In this document: one piece after another, positions 3,887 through 46,987 of the stretch
How the letters are laid out: each line of letters begins with the position of its first letter
How positions within the stretch are numbered: position 1 is the first letter of the stretch
Sequence record: MH051915
Origin: Enterobacteria phage vB_EcoM_IME339
Direction: 5' to 3' (one strand)
Length of the DNA stretch: 64,000 nt
Made by a program: the position numbers and the translations under genes
Notes under the pieces: model-generated
Databases searched by the model: none
Told to the model about the DNA's origin: nothing
The model's input: the letters and a program-made list of their open reading frames with translations, nothing else

Positions 3887-4417
<531 letters not shown>

Positions 4418-4421
4418 AGTT

Positions 4422-4451
4422 GTTTACTTTCTCCTAGAATTGTGATAGTAT
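4422..4451 (+). promoter_or_regulatory. early promoter upstream of denV
   Basis: GTTTAC, 18-nt spacer, TAGTAT. Confidence 0.5.
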
Positions 4452-4476
4452 ATTCACAGTTACTTGGAGGGATAAA

Positions 4477-4893
4477 ATGACTCGTATTAATTTGACTTTA
4501 GTATCTGAACTTGCTGATCAACATTTAATCGCAGAATACCGTGAACTGCCGCGTGTTTTTGGTATAGTTCGTAAACATGTTGCAAATGGTAAACGGGTTA
4601 AAGATTTTAAAATATCTTCCGAGTTTATTTTAGGTTCTGGTCATGTTACGTTCTTTTATGATAAGTTAGAATTTTTGCGAAAGCGTCAATCAGACATTAT
4701 AACGGAATGCTTAAAACGTGGGTTTAGTATAAAAGATACTGAAGTTCCTGACATCAGCGATATTCCAGCAGAATGGAAAAATGATTATAATCCATGCAAA
4801 TCAGCTATTAAGTTGAGTCAACAACGACTCGATGAAAAAATTTTAATGAAGCCACACTGGTATAAATACTACGGTAAAAATATTTACATTTAA
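4477..4893 (+). CDS. denV: endonuclease V (pyrimidine dimer glycosylase)
   Basis: 138 aa, [28 protein letters not shown]; strong similarity to recalled T4 DenV. Confidence 0.93.
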
Positions 4894-4902
4894 AGGAAAC
4901 AC

Positions 4903-5376
4903 ATGAAAACATATCAAGAATTTATCACTGAAGCAGCTATTAATTCTCAAATTATTGCTGAATCTTTTACTGATCTTTTGAAATTTAAAAAAGGTCAAAA
5001 AATCACTGCTGTATTGGATGATGGTACAGAAGTTGAGATGGATGTACAGGGATATAATTATGCAGTAGATGGAAAACTGTATAATAAATCTCACGCTAAA
5101 TTTGATTCATTTGACGACTTTGTTAATACAGTTGAAGATGAAAAAACTCGTAGATCAATTTCAACTGGCGATGCTAAGGTTCTTATGGCGCACGGCCATG
5201 AACGTATCCGCGCCAAACAGAATAAAATGGGTGAAGATAATTTTGCATTAGTTGGTTATCAATCTGGTAAGCAAACTTATGGCTATCAGCGTACTGCTAC
5301 CATGTATAACAAAAATGGTAAAATCGCTTTCGTGAATAGCAAAGGCTCTATTCAGTACGTCAAATCATTCAAATAA
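4903..5376 (+). CDS. internal protein with capsid-targeting N-terminus (IPII/IPIII-like)
   Basis: Starts MKTYQEFITEA, the CTS motif of T4 internal proteins; basic 157-aa body. Lies after denV rather than between e and denV. Confidence 0.7.
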   Translation: MKTYQEFITEAAINSQIIAESFTDLLKFKKGQKITAVLDDGTEVEMDVQGYNYAVDGKLYNKSHAKFDSFDDFVNTVEDEKTRRSISTGDAKVLMAHGHERIRAKQNKMGEDNFALVGYQSGKQTYGYQRTATMYNKNGKIAFVNSKGSIQYVKSFK

Positions 5377-6069: not shown

Positions 6070-6395
6070 TGACAGATACGCAACTTTTCGAATATCTTTA
6101 TTTTTCGCCAAAAACTATTAAAAATAAATTGGTGAATCATTTTGAAATTTTGGCAAATAACAACGTCTTGAGCGAATTTTATCCTAAGCAATACAAATTA
6201 CAAAAAGGTGTATTCAAAGGATGCAGAGTTTTGTGTACTGCTCCTAATGCAAGATTAATGAATAAAATTCCATATTTTACCATGGAATTTATTGATGGAC
6301 CTTTTAAAGGACTAATCACCCAAAGTTTAATGGCATATGATTCTGAGCCATTTTTAATTAAAGAACAATCTTGGATAAATTTATTTTCTAATTGA
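6066..6395 (+). CDS. hypothetical protein (109 aa)
   Basis: ATG at 6066 overlaps upstream stop (ATGA); ORF track 6015..6395. Confidence 0.45.
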
Positions 6396-6403
6396 GAGGT
6401 TAT

Positions 6404-6766
6404 ATGAAAGCATATCAAATTCTTGAAGGCACGCATAAAGGTACTATTTATTTTGAAGATGGTATTCAAGCGCGAATTATTGTTTCTAAAACCTTTAAAG
6501 AGGACTCTTTTGTAGACCCAGAAATTTTCTATGGTTTGCATGCCCGTGAAATTGAAATTGAAACACAACCTACAGTTAAAATTGAAGGTGGTCAACACCT
6601 GAACGTTAACGTTCTGCGTCGTGAAACTCTGGAAGATGCAGTTAAGCATCCGGAAAAATATCCGCAGCTGACCATCCGTGTATCCGGTTATGCAGTTCGC
6701 TTTAACTCTCTGACTCCGGAACAGCAACGCGACGTTATTGCTCGTACCTTTACTGAGAGTTTGTAA
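6404..6766 (+). CDS. autonomous glycyl-radical cofactor (GrcA/YfiD-like; T4 Y06I-like)
   Basis: C-terminal RVSGYAVRF glycyl-radical motif; last ~60 aa recalled as matching E. coli GrcA; local GC/codon shift. Confidence 0.85.
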
Positions 6767-6987
6767 TGGCAAAGATAATTATTGAAGGTTCTGAAGATGT
6801 GTTAAATGCTTTCGCCGAATGGTTTAGTAATTCAGGCGAACAGCAATTTAATGAAGCGTGGAACATGGGTGATATTAGTGGAATTTATCCTACGACAGAA
6901 ATTTCTGTTCAAGGATATGGAATTCATGAACCTATTCGTTTAGTTGAATATGATTTATGTACTGGTGAGGAAGTCAAATATGATTGA
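6766..6987 (+). CDS. hypothetical protein (73 aa)
   Basis: ORF; start overlaps upstream stop (TAATG). Confidence 0.45.
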   Translation: MAKIIIEGSEDVLNAFAEWFSNSGEQQFNEAWNMGDISGIYPTTEISVQGYGIHEPIRLVEYDLCTGEEVKYD

Positions 6988-23044: not shown

Positions 23045-23365
23045 ATGAATATTGAAAATAAATTAGATGTTGATGCAGTTCTGAGTGAAATCATCGAAGA
23101 CCATGATGCATTTTCAGAAAATTATGATTTCGATTTTTCGGATTATCTTAAACCTATCGAAATAGAAGACTGGGTGCAAGATGGTAAATGCCAATATCGC
23201 CAGTGTGTTTATTTTAGTCCAAAACACAATGTACATGTTTCCGTAAATGAAACTCGCTCAGGTTCTTATCATTCTGACTGGTATTATGCAGTTCCGACTG
23301 TTGAACTAGTCGAGCCCCGTGAACGTGTAGTAACTCAGACAGTACGAGAATGGATTACGCTATAA
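23045..23365 (+). CDS. hypothetical protein (106 aa)
   Basis: ORF track. Confidence 0.5.
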   Translation: MNIENKLDVDAVLSEIIEDHDAFSENYDFDFSDYLKPIEIEDWVQDGKCQYRQCVYFSPKHNVHVSVNETRSGSYHSDWYYAVPTVELVEPRERVVTQTVREWITL

Positions 23366-23505
23366 AACCTTGGTGGGCGGCTAGATGGGAAACTGTAGAG
23401 CCAGAGCCGGAAGAACCGGTTTACACTGATGAAGAAACAGTATATAATGAACCGACGATAAATGACATAATTGATATGGAGATGGGACATGATTACAGTA
23501 GATAA
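23350..23505 (+). CDS. possible small acidic protein (51 aa) in alternate frame
   Basis: Hand-translated MDYAIKPWWAARWETVEPEPEEPVYTDEETVYNEPT...; overlaps both neighbours; locally GC-richer. Confidence 0.3.
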   Translation: MDYAIKPWWAARWETVEPEPEEPVYTDEETVYNEPTINDIIDMEMGHDYSR

Positions 23506-23983: not shown

Positions 23984-24457
23984 ATGTTATTGACTGGCAA
24001 ATTATACAAAGAAGAAAAACAGAAATTTTATAATGCACAAAACGGTAAATGCTTAATTTGCCAACGAGAACTAAATCCTGATGTTCAAGCTAATCACCTC
24101 GACCATGACCACGAATTAAATGGACCAAAAGCAGGAAAGGTGCGTGGATTGCTCTGTAATCTTTGCAATGCAGCGGAAGGTCAAATGAAGCATAAATTTA
24201 ATCGTTCTGGCTTAAAGGGACAAGGTGTTGATTATCTTGAATGGTTAGAAAATTTACTTACTTATTTAAAATCCGATTACACCCAAAATAATATTCACCC
24301 TAACTTCGTTGGAGATAAATCAAAGGAATTTTCTCGTTTAGGAAAAGAGGAAATGATGGCTGAGATGCTTCAAAGAGGATTTGAATATAATGAATCTGAC
24401 ACTAAAACACAATTAATAGCTTCATTTAAGAAGCAGCTTAGAAAGAGTTTAAAATGA
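23984..24457 (+). CDS. 49: endonuclease VII (Holliday-junction resolvase), gene 49
   Basis: 157 aa; Zn-binding CLIC...HLDHDH...CNLCN; matches T4 gp49. Confidence 0.9.
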   Translation: MLLTGKLYKEEKQKFYNAQNGKCLICQRELNPDVQANHLDHDHELNGPKAGKVRGLLCNLCNAAEGQMKHKFNRSGLKGQGVDYLEWLENLLTYLKSDYTQNNIHPNFVGDKSKEFSRLGKEEMMAEMLQRGFEYNESDTKTQLIASFKKQLRKSLK

Positions 24458-26271
24458 CAATTGAAAAAGAAATTGAAGGATTGATTCATAAAACTAATAA
24501 AGACCTTTTGAACGAGAATGCTAATAAAGATTCTCGTGTTTTTCCAACTCAACGGGACCTTATGGCTGGTATTGTGTCTAAACACATTGCCAAAAATATG
24601 GTCCCGTCTTTTATTATGAAAGCGCATGAAAGCGGAATTATCCATTTCCATGATATTGATTATTCCCCTGCTCTTCCATTTACTAATTGCTGTTTAGTAG
24701 ATTTAAAAGGAATGCTTGAAAACGGATTTAAGCTCGGTAATGCGCAGATTGAAACTCCTAAATCAATCGGCGTTGCTACTGCAATTATGGCACAAATTAC
24801 TGCACAGGTTGCTTCCCATCAATATGGCGGAACGACTTTTGCGAATGTAGATAAAGTACTTTCTCCTTATGTTAAACGCACCTATGCAAAACATATTGAG
24901 GATGCAGAAAAATGGCAAATCGCTGATGCGTTGAATTATGCCCAATCTAAAACAGAAAAAGACGTATACGATGCATTCCAAGCTTATGAATATGAAGTAA
25001 ATACTCTCTTTAGTTCAAATGGACAAACGCCTTTTGTAACAATTACATTTGGTACGGGAACTGACTGGACTGAACGAATGATTCAGAAAGCAATTCTGAA
25101 AAATCGTATTAAAGGCCTTGGCCGTGATGGAATAACTCCTATTTTCCCTAAGCTTGTTATGTTCGTTGAAGAGGGTGTCAATCTTTATAAAGATGATCCG
25201 AACTATGATATTAAGCAGCTTGCGTTAGAATGTGCAAGCAAAAGAATGTATCCTGATATTATTTCAGCTAAGAACAATAAAGCTATCACCGGTTCATCTA
25301 TTCCTGTTTCTCCAATGGGTTGCCGTAGTTTCTTAAGCGTATGGAAAGATTCGACTGGTAATGAAATTCTTGATGGACGTAATAATCTCGGTGTTGTAAC
25401 ACTGAATCTTCCTCGCATTGCGTTAGATTCTTATATTGGAACACAATTCAATGAACAGAAATTTGCCGAATTGTTCAATGAACGAATGGATTTGTGTTTT
25501 GAAGCTTTGATGTGTAGAATTAGTTCCTTAAAAGGAGTTAAAGCGACCGTTGCTCCTATTCTTTACCAAGAAGGTGCATTCGGGGTTCGTCTTAAACCTG
25601 ATGACGACATAATTGAGTTATTTAAAAACGGTAGAAGTTCAGTGTCCCTAGGATACATTGGTATTCACGAATTGAATATTCTTGTCGGTCGTGATATTGG
25701 ACAGGAAATTTTGACTAAAATGAATGCTCGTCTTAAACGGTGGACTGAAAGAACCGGTTTTGCTTTTAGCTTGTATTCTACTCCTGCTGAAAACCTGTGC
25801 TATCGCTTCTGTAAACTTGATACTGAAAAATATGGAAGTGTAAAAGATGTTACTGATAAAGGCTGGTACACTAATAGTTTCCATGTTTCAGTAGAAGAAA
25901 ATATTACTCCGTTTGAAAAGATTTCTCGCGAAGCCCCATATCATTTCATTGCGACAGGTGGTCACATTTCTTATGTTGAACTTCCTGATATGAAAAATAA
26001 CTTAAAAGGTCTTGAGGCTGTATGGGATTATGCTGCACAACATTTAGATTATTTTGGTGTTAACATGCCAGTAGATAAATGTTTTACATGTGGAAGTACC
26101 CATGAAATGACTCCTACTGAAAACGGATTTGTTTGTTCTATTTGTGGAGAAACTGATCCTAAAAAGATGAATACGATAAGAAGAACTTGTGGTTATTTGG
26201 GAAATCCGAACGAACGCGGATTTAATCTCGGCAAAAATAAAGAAATCATGCATAGGGTTAAACACCAATGA
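24454..26271 (+). CDS. nrdD: anaerobic ribonucleoside-triphosphate reductase NrdD (uninterrupted)
   Basis: 605 aa contiguous ORF; C-terminal glycyl-radical region (...RRTCGYLG) and Cys cluster. Confidence 0.95.
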   Translation: MTIEKEIEGLIHKTNKDLLNENANKDSRVFPTQRDLMAGIVSKHIAKNMVPSFIMKAHESGIIHFHDIDYSPALPFTNCCLVDLKGMLENGFKLGNAQIETPKSIGVATAIMAQITAQVASHQYGGTTFANVDKVLSPYVKRTYAKHIEDAEKWQIADALNYAQSKTEKDVYDAFQAYEYEVNTLFSSNGQTPFVTITFGTGTDWTERMIQKAILKNRIKGLGRDGITPIFPKLVMFVEEGVNLYKDDPNYDIKQLALECASKRMYPDIISAKNNKAITGSSIPVSPMGCRSFLSVWKDSTGNEILDGRNNLGVVTLNLPRIALDSYIGTQFNEQKFAELFNERMDLCFEALMCRISSLKGVKATVAPILYQEGAFGVRLKPDDDIIELFKNGRSSVSLGYIGIHELNILVGRDIGQEILTKMNARLKRWTERTGFAFSLYSTPAENLCYRFCKLDTEKYGSVKDVTDKGWYTNSFHVSVEENITPFEKISREAPYHFIATGGHISYVELPDMKNNLKGLEAVWDYAAQHLDYFGVNMPVDKCFTCGSTHEMTPTENGFVCSICGETDPKKMNTIRRTCGYLGNPNERGFNLGKNKEIMHRVKHQ

Positions 26272-26738
26272 ATTATGATAGATTTTATCCTTGCGATTTT
26301 GTGAATGGCCCTGGATGCAGGGTCGTTCTTTTCGTTACAGGTTGTTTGCATAAATGCGAAGGGTGTTATAATAAATCAACATGGAATGCTAGAAATGGCG
26401 TTCCATTCACTGGTGAAACACTGGAACAATTAATTGAATGTTTGAATAATGATTATATAGAAGGATTAACTATAACTGGAGGAGACCCTCTCTATCCTGA
26501 TAACCGAGATGTTATTCACTCTGTGGTTCAAACAGTAAAAAATCTTTATCCAAATAAAAGCATTTGGTTGTGGACAGGATATAAATTTGAAGATATTAAA
26601 CAACTAGAAATGCTTAAATATGTTGATGTTATTATTGATGGGAAGTATGAGAAAAATCTTCCTACCAAAAAGCTGTGGCGAGGATCAGATAATCAGCGAC
26701 TTTGGTCAAATACCGATGGGGTGTGGAAACATGATTAA
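26268..26738 (+). CDS. nrdG: anaerobic RNR activating enzyme NrdG (radical SAM)
   Basis: 156 aa; Cys-rich motif CLHKCEGCYN; ATGA-coupled to nrdD. Confidence 0.9.
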   Translation: MNYDRFYPCDFVNGPGCRVVLFVTGCLHKCEGCYNKSTWNARNGVPFTGETLEQLIECLNNDYIEGLTITGGDPLYPDNRDVIHSVVQTVKNLYPNKSIWLWTGYKFEDIKQLEMLKYVDVIIDGKYEKNLPTKKLWRGSDNQRLWSNTDGVWKHD

Positions 26739-45559: not shown

Positions 45560-46987
45560 GTGGTAGAAATTATTCTTTCTCATCTCATATTTGATCAAGC
45601 TTATTTTTCAAAAGTTTGGCCATATATGGATTCAGAATATTTTGAAAGTGGTCCAGCTAAAAATACATTCAAATTAATTAAATCTCATGTCAATGAGTAC
45701 CATAGCGTTCCATCTATTAATGCGTTAAATGTTGCATTAGAAAATAGTTCATTTACTGAAACAGAATATTCTGGTGTAAAAACACTTATTTCAAAACTGG
45801 CTGATTCTCCGGAAGACCATAGCTGGTTAGTAAAAGAAACAGAAAAATATGTTCAGCAAAGGGCGATGTTTAATGCTACGTCTAAAATAATTGAAATTCA
45901 AACTAATGCTGAGCTTCCTCCGGAAAAACGAAATAAGAAAATGCCAGATGTAGGTGCTATTCCTGACATCATGCGTCAAGCATTATCAATTTCATTTGAT
46001 AGTTACGTTGGTCATGATTGGATGGATGACTACGAAGCGCGTTGGCTATCTTATATGAATAAAGCTCGTAAGGTTCCATTTAAACTCAAAATTCTAAATA
46101 AAATTACTAAAGGCGGAGCTGAAACTGGAACACTGAACGTTTTAATGGCTGGTGTTAACGTTGGTAAGTCATTAGGTCTGTGTTCATTGGCAGCAGATTA
46201 TTTACAGCTCGGTCATAATGTTCTTTACATTTCAATGGAAATGGCAGAAGAAGTCTGTGCTAAGCGTATTGACGCTAATATGCTCGATGTTTCTCTTGAT
46301 GACATTGATGATGGGCATATTTCTTACGCTGAATATAAAGGAAAAATGGAAAAATGGCGTGAGAAATCTACTCTTGGACGTTTAATCGTTAAACAGTATC
46401 CTACTGGTGGAGCAGACGCTAATACATTTCGATCGCTTTTAAATGAATTAAAGCTCAAGAAGAATTTTGTTCCAACAATCATTATTGTTGACTATCTGGG
46501 TATTTGTAAATCTTGCCGCATTAGAGTTTATTCAGAAAATAGTTACACAACTGTTAAAGCCATCGCAGAAGAATTGCGTGCTCTGGCTGTTGAAACCGAA
46601 ACTGTTCTTTGGACTGCAGCACAGGTTGGTAAGCAAGCTTGGGATTCTTCTGATGTTAACATGAGCGATATTGCAGAATCTGCCGGTCTTCCAGCAACAG
46701 CCGATTTTATGCTTGCGGTCATTGAAACCGAGGAGTTAGCAGCTGCTGAACAACAACTAATTAAGCAAATCAAATCACGATATGGTGATAAGAATAAATG
46801 GAATAAGTTTTTGATGGGTGTTCAAAAAGGAAATCAGAAATGGGTAGAAATTGAACAAGATTCTACTCCAACTGAAGTGAACGAAGTGGCAGGTTCACAG
46901 CAGATTCAAGCTGAGCAGAATCGCTATCAAAGAAATGAATCGGCTCGAGCTCAGTTAGATGCTTTGGCAAATGAATTAAAATTTTAG
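45560..46987 (+). CDS. 41: replicative DNA helicase gp41 (DnaB-like)
   Basis: 475 aa, GTG start; Walker A GVNVGKS. Confidence 0.97.
   Translation: MVEIILSHLIFDQAYFSKVWPYMDSEYFESGPAKNTFKLIKSHVNEYHSVPSINALNVALENSSFTETEYSGVKTLISKLADSPEDHSWLVKETEKYVQQRAMFNATSKIIEIQTNAELPPEKRNKKMPDVGAIPDIMRQALSISFDSYVGHDWMDDYEARWLSYMNKARKVPFKLKILNKITKGGAETGTLNVLMAGVNVGKSLGLCSLAADYLQLGHNVLYISMEMAEEVCAKRIDANMLDVSLDDIDDGHISYAEYKGKMEKWREKSTLGRLIVKQYPTGGADANTFRSLLNELKLKKNFVPTIIIVDYLGICKSCRIRVYSENSYTTVKAIAEELRALAVETETVLWTAAQVGKQAWDSSDVNMSDIAESAGLPATADFMLAVIETEELAAAEQQLIKQIKSRYGDKNKWNKFLMGVQKGNQKWVEIEQDSTPTEVNEVAGSQQIQAEQNRYQRNESARAQLDALANELKF

Follow-up and report, generated by a model that had tools for sequence, protein, structure and literature searches.

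Part of an old T4-type phage gene, vs.6, has been overwritten by host chromosomal grcA, with different donors in different phages

The DNA analysed here is a stretch of 64,000 nucleotides of Enterobacteria phage vB_EcoM_IME339 (sequence record MH051915), referred to below as the window. It belongs to a T4-type, Tequatrovirus-like phage and carries at positions 6404-6766, on the plus strand, the coding sequence of a 120-residue autonomous glycyl-radical cofactor of the vs.6/Y06I type, similar to bacterial GrcA; the surrounding vs.6 region is 95-98% identical to hundreds of Tequatrovirus genomes. vs.6 is an old phage homologue of bacterial grcA, and positions 6582-6756 within it have been overwritten by host chromosomal grcA through homologous gene conversion. 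The same replacement is found with different donors: three coliphage genera (Tequatrovirus, Mosigvirus and Carettavirus) carry a segment of E. coli grcA, and Jiaodavirus carries the corresponding segment of Klebsiella grcA. To this explanation as a whole, an old vs.6/Y06I gene whose radical-domain segment was overwritten by the grcA of different hosts via gene conversion, we assign a probability of about 0.88.

The match to the host is both long and sharply delimited. A blastn search with vs.6 against 5,426 complete E. coli genomes returned, in all 5,426, a match of 97.3% identity over 185 nucleotides (nt) between 6582-6766 and grcA, which lies at the ung-grcA locus in each of them; the DNA 5’ of position 6582 (query position 179) has no blastn match in these genomes. 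Identity is complete from 6582 to 6726 (145 nt, 47 identical codons in succession), and the five differences between the window and E. coli that follow up to 6766 are all synonymous. The host-derived conversion patch itself, delimited by blastn, codon alignment, composition and informative sites, runs from 6582 to 6756 on the plus strand and corresponds to nt 200-374 (codons 68-124) of E. coli grcA. Within it, 173 of 175 nt are as in E. coli, the remainder being private synonymous changes at 6727 (G>A) and 6739 (C>T), and the synonymous divergence (dS) from E. coli is about 0.07. Conservation of the protein alone predicts saturation at synonymous sites, as seen in the non-converted phage lineages described below (dS >1.2), so the patch is closer to the host than expected. 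When candidate donors were ranked over 6582-6766, E. coli (97.3%) came before cryptic Escherichia (96.2%), Citrobacter amalonaticus (90%), Klebsiella and Enterobacter (about 84-85%) and Salmonella (83%); the donor of the patch is E. coli specifically. A megablast of the whole 64-kb window against E. coli returned the patch as the sole match, besides its 80% echo in pflB.

Composition sets the same segment apart. The G+C content (GC) of the patch is 0.48, against 0.331 in the 5’ half of the gene (6404-6581) and 0.345 in the whole window, and only 0.06% of the 175-nt windows of the 64 kb reach the patch value. At third codon positions, GC (GC3) is 0.40 in the patch and 0.19 in the 5’ half. The fraction of E. 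coli-optimal codons (Fop) is 0.81 versus 0.47, the patch lying in the top 0.04% among 58-codon windows of long open reading frames (ORFs): all five leucine codons are CTG, all three proline codons are CCG, and the six arginine codons are CGT or CGC. The phage patch also contains the codons of E. coli that are not optimal (CAA, AAG, TAT, CAT, GAT, TTT), and Klebsiella phages carry the differing codons of Klebsiella (CAG, GAG, TAC, GAC, TTC). Since non-optimal codons were copied as well, and since codons switch with the host species, codon convergence is excluded.

On either side of the patch, the gene is of phage type. The 5’ half (6404-6581, plus strand), with GC 0.33, GC3 0.19 and no E. coli DNA match, encodes a diverged homologue of GrcA’s disordered N-terminal region: an hhalign comparison restricted to the N-terminal halves of the phage and bacterial proteins gave a probability of 91.2% (E=9.8e-7; 33% identity over 45 columns), a match that is weak but collinear up to the junction. 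In nucleotide terms, this half of the window gene is 88% identical to Mosigvirus/Carettavirus and 72% to Jiaodavirus. The 5’ junction is the point at which phage/host similarity collapses, near the border between the disordered N-terminal half and the structured domain. At the other end, the last ten nucleotides (6757-6766, plus strand) read G AGT TTG TAA where E. coli has A AGC CTG TAA, and mark the 3’ limit of the tract. RB16/KP15-type genes have in common an ancestral tail, GAG AGT CTA, and it is this tail that the window gene resembles, not that of E. coli. At sites 6760/6761 all four haplotypes are found among Tequatroviruses, and the 3’ end of the tract is thus mosaic. In Escherichia phage OES_C-2, a Tequatrovirus (L196:1329-1685), the tail is E. 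coli-like at 6760/6761 (AGC CTG) but keeps the phage G at 6757; the same gene has a 6-nt in-frame deletion in its 5’ half, leaving 118 residues with ‘EI’ lost. With phage-type sequence on both sides of the host DNA, the segment is an internal gene-conversion patch and not a fusion.

An earlier reading of this gene, made from the letters and their ORFs alone (the original prediction), had described a chimera in which a phage-specific N-terminus was fused to a recently acquired host segment, with a GC-richer 3’ half in host-preferred codons from about 6587. The compositional contrast is borne out (GC 0.48 vs 0.33, Fop 0.81 vs 0.47, with CTG, CCG and CGT/CGC), and so is the recent E. coli origin. 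The two tests that had been proposed point the same way: nucleotide identity to host grcA (97.3% over 185 nt, dS about 0.07) goes far beyond what protein conservation leads one to expect, and GC and codon usage are not uniform along the gene, the patch falling in the top 0.04-0.06% of the window. The boundary was placed close to the actual one, 6581|6582. The fusion had to be given up, as the N-terminal half is a diverged GrcA N-terminal region.

The age of the gene is apparent from its non-converted relatives. T4-type lineages of the PG7/CC31-like, RB16/RB43/CfP1-like and KP15-like groups (L008-L019) carry the same 120-residue gene without the host patch. Compared with 81 bacterial grcA genes, their 3’ half reaches no more than 77-85% identity, and their dS versus hosts is saturated with the protein nearly unchanged (non-synonymous divergence, dN, of about 0-0.08 in the C-terminal domain). 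The longest exact match to any bacterial grcA in non-converted phage copies is 17-38 nt, L022 (56 nt, see below) apart. vs.6 was kept in 6 of 6 T4-like genomes (Nolan et al. 2006, PMC1524935). Among these relatives, KP15 (L018) and RB16 (L015), each with the gene at 1501-1863, have codon-ameliorated copies with saturated dS versus hosts; the C-terminus of KP15 is identical to that of Klebsiella GrcA (L..E) and that of RB16 to E. coli GrcA (E..K), and a short micro-tract of KP15, CTG GAT GCG GTT GA, is Klebsiella-like. This protein-level host matching was not used here, the RB16-type allele being found also in Enterobacter, Citrobacter and Klebsiella phage isolates.

We compared the two parts of the gene with other phages as well as with the host. 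Between the window and Carettavirus or Mosigvirus, dS is 0.45-0.55 in the 5’ half and 0.05-0.10 in the patch. In control pairs without a host-identical patch, dS of the patch region equalled or exceeded that of the 5’ half in five of six, and the patch region is thus under no intrinsic synonymous constraint. Informative sites, i.e. sites at which E. coli and an outgroup phage differ, were scored per outgroup. In the 5’ half, the window follows the phage outgroup at 49-67 sites and the host at 8-23, and in the patch it follows the host at 26-36 sites and the phage at 0-1 (Fisher p from 1e-10 down to 5e-19 or 8e-21). A strict version, in which at least 6 of 8 outgroups had to agree, retains just 2 informative sites in the patch because the outgroups differ from one another at synonymous sites. 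As to direction, E. coli grcA is uniform along its length (GC3 0.42 in the 5’ and 0.43 in the 3’ part), and its halves diverge about equally from orthologues within Enterobacteriaceae, a more divergent 5’ half being seen in the distant Yersinia and Haemophilus orthologues alone. This uniformity indicates vertical descent of the host gene, and thus transfer from host to phage.

The replacement recurs across phage genera. Over the 175-nt patch, identity to E. coli grcA is 174/175 in T4 (Tequatrovirus), 173/175 in ST0 and 170/175 in WFK (both Mosigvirus), and 175/175 in phiE142 (Carettavirus), in which the genes flanking vs.6 are 64-71% identical to the window. In T4 (NC_000866, L162, 5558-5920, minus strand), the patch does not differ from E. 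coli grcA at any synonymous site and has one non-synonymous change, CGT>CAT (R73H), in an otherwise invariant domain; the window keeps the arginine. In the Klebsiella Jiaodavirus phages KPV15, Roth76 and Nispero, the 3’ half of vs.6 has 56% GC. The 3’ half of KPV15 was at first just 87-90% identical to any bacterium, because the first bacterial sample, 80 species from a GTDB scan, did not include K. pneumoniae. A metagenome scan with a KPV15 32-mer identified the Klebsiella donor, returning >20 bacterial contigs of 56-58% GC with ung-grcA-srmB synteny and a GrcA that is exactly GRCA_KLEP7. Jiaodavirus patches match Klebsiella grcA at 167-170 of 175 positions, versus 150-153 for E. coli. The exact run between the Klebsiella phages and Klebsiella grcA is 158 nt long, starts at the same codon as the coliphage patch (..ATT|GAA GGC GGT..) and stops about 25 nt short of the stop codon. 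In the KPV15 record (KY000080.1; L027:1501-1862), one missing nucleotide puts vs.6 (362 nt) out of frame, probably through a sequencing error, the gene being intact in the close relatives Roth76, L170 and Nispero.

GenBank has 637 phage records with at least 95% identity to positions 200-384 of E. coli grcA and another 134 with at least 90% identity to positions 202-369 of Klebsiella grcA. In all of these records the match begins at host position 199-202, and none of them carries host-like grcA upstream of position 199 or a full-length host-like copy. Separate conversion of Tequatrovirus, Mosigvirus and Carettavirus by E. coli is favoured, though not proven, because no derived sites are common between the genera and because the island of near identity coincides with host homology. 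A third, Pasteurellaceae-side conversion tract may be present in L022:1501-1890 (IMGVR_UViG_3300008607_000007), a T4-like contig of human-metagenome origin. Near the 3’ end of its GrcA-like gene, 56 nt match Haemophilus grcA (L140/L142) exactly, and it agrees with Haemophilus at about 8 sites where its close relatives L021, L023-L025 and L032 differ from it, evidence that is weaker than in the other cases because phage and host are similar in GC. A 150-residue ORF at L030:1501-1794 (IMGVR_UViG_2706794630_000006; 19 kb, 46% GC) is 86-91% identical to Yersinia grcA in both halves; rather than a T4-like copy, this contig may represent a piece of host DNA or of a prophage that was included in the viral collection.

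Several other explanations were weighed. The sharp border at 6581|6582, the lack of similarity to the host in the DNA upstream and the lack of a Pfam match for residues 1-59 would all suit a one-off fusion, in which illegitimate recombination joined a phage N-terminal module unrelated to GrcA to a captured host 3’ fragment. This is very improbable given that the N-terminal half is homologous to that of GrcA (by hhalign, and by phmmer from residue 22), that relatives without the host patch carry the same full-length gene, that the last 10-25 nt or so are of phage type, so that the host DNA is flanked on both sides by homologous phage sequence, and that Klebsiella phages use the same junction with another donor. 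Could the segment instead be ancient and held host-identical, with no recent transfer, by purifying selection and convergent codon optimisation? The C-terminal domain is indeed extremely conserved as protein in all phage lineages (dN about 0-0.08), and E. coli grcA codons are mostly optimal (Fop 0.81 in the patch). But the non-converted lineages keep nearly the same protein at saturated dS, the host match extends to non-optimal codons that switch with the host species, dS of the segment is not below that of the 5’ half in five of six control pairs, and exact runs of 145-175 nt compare with 17-38 nt in non-converted copies (L022, with 56 nt, apart), all of which leaves this account next to no probability. 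A reverse transfer, with T-even phages as the source of the 3’ half of enterobacterial grcA, has nothing specific in its favour beyond the fact that identity is by itself symmetric. It is contradicted by the uniformity of host grcA in GC, GC3 and divergence from the orthologues of other genera, by the composition of the patch, host-like and an extreme outlier within the phage, and by the presence of grcA at the ung-grcA locus in 5,426 of 5,426 E. coli genomes, and we regard it as extremely improbable.

The phages are grown on E. coli, whose DNA the patch reproduces, as would be the case had host reads been mis-assembled or had conversion taken place during laboratory propagation. Such an artefact can practically be dismissed: 637 phage records, sequenced independently and with T4, T2 and the RB phages among them, have the patch, as do metagenomic viral contigs; the patch is in frame, with phage sequence around it and lineage-specific substitutions; and isolates from Yersinia, Salmonella and Hafnia keep the E. 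coli type while Klebsiella phages carry the Klebsiella type. A closer competitor concerns the number of events. One E. coli conversion might have been followed by phage-phage spread among Tequatrovirus, Mosigvirus and Carettavirus, making two events when Klebsiella is included, and host conversion a rare process, not a recurring one. The 5’ junction and the G at 6757 are common to all coliphage copies, T-even phages recombine freely with one another, and the 5’ half (88%) is also closer between genera than the flanking genes (64-71%). However, a common junction and tail are equally expected under separate events if homology limits the tract. The island of near identity between genera coincides with the host-homologous tract and does not reach at random into the flanks, Tequatrovirus and Mosigvirus/Carettavirus have no derived non-E. 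coli patch substitution in common, each coliphage lineage is separately 0-5 changes away from E. coli, and Jiaodavirus represents an independent host event with the same junction. We therefore consider a single coliphage event possible but rather unlikely.

Several points weigh against conversion by host grcA as set out here. T4 degrades cytosine-containing host DNA, and this should disfavour conversion from host to phage. The molecular route, SDSA (synthesis-dependent strand annealing) or recombination-dependent replication on host fragments, is one that we infer. For the three coliphage genera, what looks like independent host-to-phage events may be one event spread by phage-phage recombination. 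Host identity at the DNA level may have been selected or may be a neutral by-product of homology, the protein being equally conserved in codon-ameliorated lineages. Tequatroviruses from Yersinia (24 records), Salmonella, Citrobacter, Hafnia and Serratia carry an E. coli-type patch (96-98%), from which it follows either that conversion is rare on laboratory time scales or that the true host is E. coli. Examples are Yersinia phage ZN18 (L002) and Hafnia phage IsaacDaniel; ZN18 has three private differences, of which two agree with Yersinia grcA, though these bases are found in 28-59 of 82 bacteria. The grcA-like genes of T5-like, rV5-like, jumbo and Aeromonas phages have no host-identical tract, and the process is thus not universal. 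Finally, the window protein scores 154.6 bits with the NCBIfam equivalog TIGR04365 (spare_glycyl), below the cut-off of 170 that E. coli GrcA, at 233.9 bits, exceeds. This shortfall is due to a diverged or short N-terminus; TIGR04365 is still its top NCBIfam match (E=1.4e-45), and in every other feature tested the protein belongs with the GrcA/YfiD spare-part kind.

How conversion by host grcA might proceed can be outlined as follows. Fragments of the host chromosome, arising from degraded host DNA, would serve as templates after pairing with vs.6 in its conserved part. Copying could take place by T4 recombination-dependent replication or by SDSA, and the outcome would be a patch without crossover, the new strand containing phage-modified bases. 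Upstream, the tract would end where homology breaks down in the disordered half, which evolves fast, and downstream its limit would be the end of the gene. A host-identical patch would in turn ease further conversion, so that the segment would track the local host.

The vs.6 ORF is identified as follows. It starts with ATG at 6404 and ends with TAA at 6764-6766, which overlaps the ATG (6766) of a vs.5-like ORF. A Shine-Dalgarno-like GAGAGG, read from the sequence at 6394-6399 on the plus strand, lies 4 nt 5’ of the vs.6 ATG, and the TGA (6393-6395) that ends the vs.7-like ORF upstream overlaps it. The slot is as in T4, with vs.7-like and vs.5-like ORFs either side and regB downstream. A promoter/terminator scan around vs.6 gave a number of sites not above that of shuffled controls. 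An antisense ORF of 197 residues (6179-6772, minus strand) covers the entire gene and has no support; it is most likely a by-product of AT-rich sequence with few stop codons on the opposite strand. The assignment of the coding sequence rests on the ORF table, Pfam, PDB and the annotation of T4, whose RefSeq vs.6 is an “autonomous glycyl radical cofactor GrcA”. Gly_radical (PF01228, E=2.2e-18) is the sole Pfam domain of the 120-residue protein, and residues 1-59 have no Pfam match. The protein is in essence a free-standing copy of the PFL (pyruvate formate-lyase) radical domain, like the small (~14 kDa) cofactors of the GrcA/YfiD kind. The best solved relative is E. coli YfiD/GrcA (PDB 6OWR, E=4.6e-42), and phmmer aligns window residues 22-120 with YfiD 28-127. 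The protein also matches PflB 697-759, the last 63 residues (PDB 1CM5 alignment, E=4.8e-26), and phrog_1209 over its full length. In the codon table and in the alignments to 6OWR and 1CM5, the glycyl-radical signature RVSGYAVRF occupies residues 92-100, encoded at 6677-6703 on the plus strand, and the codon of Gly95 (6686-6688) is the counterpart of YfiD G102 and PflB G734. The original prediction had pointed to this signature, to a comparable T4 protein and to the likeness of the last 60 or so residues to E. coli GrcA. Each of these is confirmed: residues 61-120 are all identical to GrcA 68-127, and the window ORF is the orthologue of T4 vs.6/Y06I, with 118 of 120 residues identical, the exceptions being T54 where T4 has P54 and the host-type R73 where T4 has H73.

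The function of the T4 protein is known. Y06I, activated by the activating enzyme of pyruvate formate-lyase (PFL), restores PFL that has been cleaved by O2 (Wagner et al. 2001, summary in PMC8683613), and YfiD is a validated spare part as well; the spare-part role that the original prediction named is thus published for T4. In YfiD, residues 1-60 are disordered and aid binding and activation, and residues 61-127 are structured (PMC8683613); the patch, at host codons 68-124, covers essentially this structured domain. The 118/120 identity suggests that the window protein works as the same spare part for O2-cleaved PFL. Host PflA would install the radical on Gly95 of the phage protein, whose domain would dock into a host PflB with its C-terminus cut off by O2 at Gly734. 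Production of acetyl-CoA and formate would thereby be restored in infected cells under anaerobic or microaerobic conditions, such as those of the gut.

The gene and its biochemical function being already known, what is added here is evolutionary. In the accessible literature we found no report of host-specific conversion of vs.6 by grcA or of its host identity at the DNA level, though an earlier mention is possible. The case is unusually clean and resolved to the base: in a virulent phage, a stretch of a metabolic gene has been replaced by sequence from the chromosomal copy of the host, and the patch is present in >750 sequenced phages, with two host genera and one junction. DNA modification and the breakdown of host DNA are usually considered to shield T-even phages from the host genome. 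The vs.6 patch provides a natural gauge of homologous exchange from host to phage in this group, and vs.6/grcA a directly testable experimental system for such conversion. For T4-like phages employed in therapy, the patch is also a candidate indicator of the recent host species. For annotation, it cautions against taking every phage sequence that is identical to a host gene, as DNA or as protein, for contamination, and shows that equivalog cut-offs can miss a chimeric protein. More tentatively, and at somewhat less than even odds, the radical domain may be kept in lock-step with the enterobacterial host species by recurrent conversion on the host chromosome. If so, strictly virulent T-even phages would use the host chromosome as a recombination/repair template in nature, and frequently enough for species-specific footprints to become fixed, and the process would be self-reinforcing, since no substrate would suit a further conversion better than a host-identical patch. 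It would then also record the recent reservoir host, and the isolates from Yersinia, Salmonella and Hafnia would reveal an E. coli reservoir. Conversion may also be adaptive, in that a shift to another host would be followed by a new fit of the domain to the PflB/PflA present there.

Elsewhere in the window, just two other 175-nt stretches have a GC of at least 0.48, at 23245-23431 (small ORFs upstream of pin) and 46558-46754 (inside a gp41-like helicase ORF, 45560-46987). Neither matches E. coli DNA, and both were rejected as further host patches. Upstream of vs.6, the lysozyme gene e (3923-4417) is directly followed by denV (4477-4893), and this by a gene for an internal virion protein of 157 residues (4903-5376; phrog_3155, E=1e-101). 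T4 has ipIII and ipII between e and denV, where the window lacks them. The interval 3923-5376 is just 20-50% alignable with the Tequatroviruses L002 and L003, indicating a plastic ip locus. As had been predicted, nrdD and nrdG are in the same genome: nrdD at 24454-26271, an uninterrupted ORF of 605 residues (Pfam NRDD 3e-171, and Gly_radical), is followed by an NrdG-type activase ORF of 156 residues with a CxxxCxxC motif (26268-26738). T4 nrdD carries a group I intron; as the gene is uninterrupted here, nrdD of the window phage appears to be intron-less.

Among known systems, E. coli GrcA differs from the window protein in being 7 residues longer, the N-terminal 59 or so residues being about 33% identical. 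Full-size glycyl radical enzymes (PflB, TdcE, NrdD) have the C-terminal glycyl-radical domain in common with vs.6. A role of vs.6 as the catalytic subunit of such an enzyme, a barrel of about 600-800 residues with catalytic cysteines, was rejected, as the protein has 120 residues and matches only the last 63 or so of PflB; at the DNA level, the patch is 80% identical to pflB versus 97-100% to grcA. Marker rescue, or plasmid-phage recombination, in T4 is a short homologous exchange, carried out by the recombination machinery of the phage, with cytosine-containing DNA in the infected cell. There, the donors are engineered, with T4 inserts on plasmids, whereas vs.6 has had a natural chromosomal donor and the events are fixed in wild phages. 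The conversion also resembles what is known of the photosystem genes of cyanophages, in which intragenic host-phage recombination was reportedly seen by Zeidner in 2005. In cyanophage psbA/psbD, such recombination is accompanied by patchy G+C, exchanged segments and clustering by host (Sullivan et al. 2006, PMC1484495). As in psbA/psbD, vs.6 is a phage copy of a host metabolic gene with a host-like segment in a phage-like remainder, and the marks of the psbA type are all found: a host-like segment, phylogenetic incongruence, an identified donor and direction, and independent events (Jiaodavirus). The signals in psbA/psbD, however, are statistical, diffuse and bidirectional, while vs.6 has a single, sharp tract of 158-175 nt that runs from host to phage. 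It differs further in being found in T-even coliphages and Klebsiella phages, which have modified DNA and degrade the host chromosome, and in having a patch 97-100% identical to extant host species, with the same junction used for two host genera.

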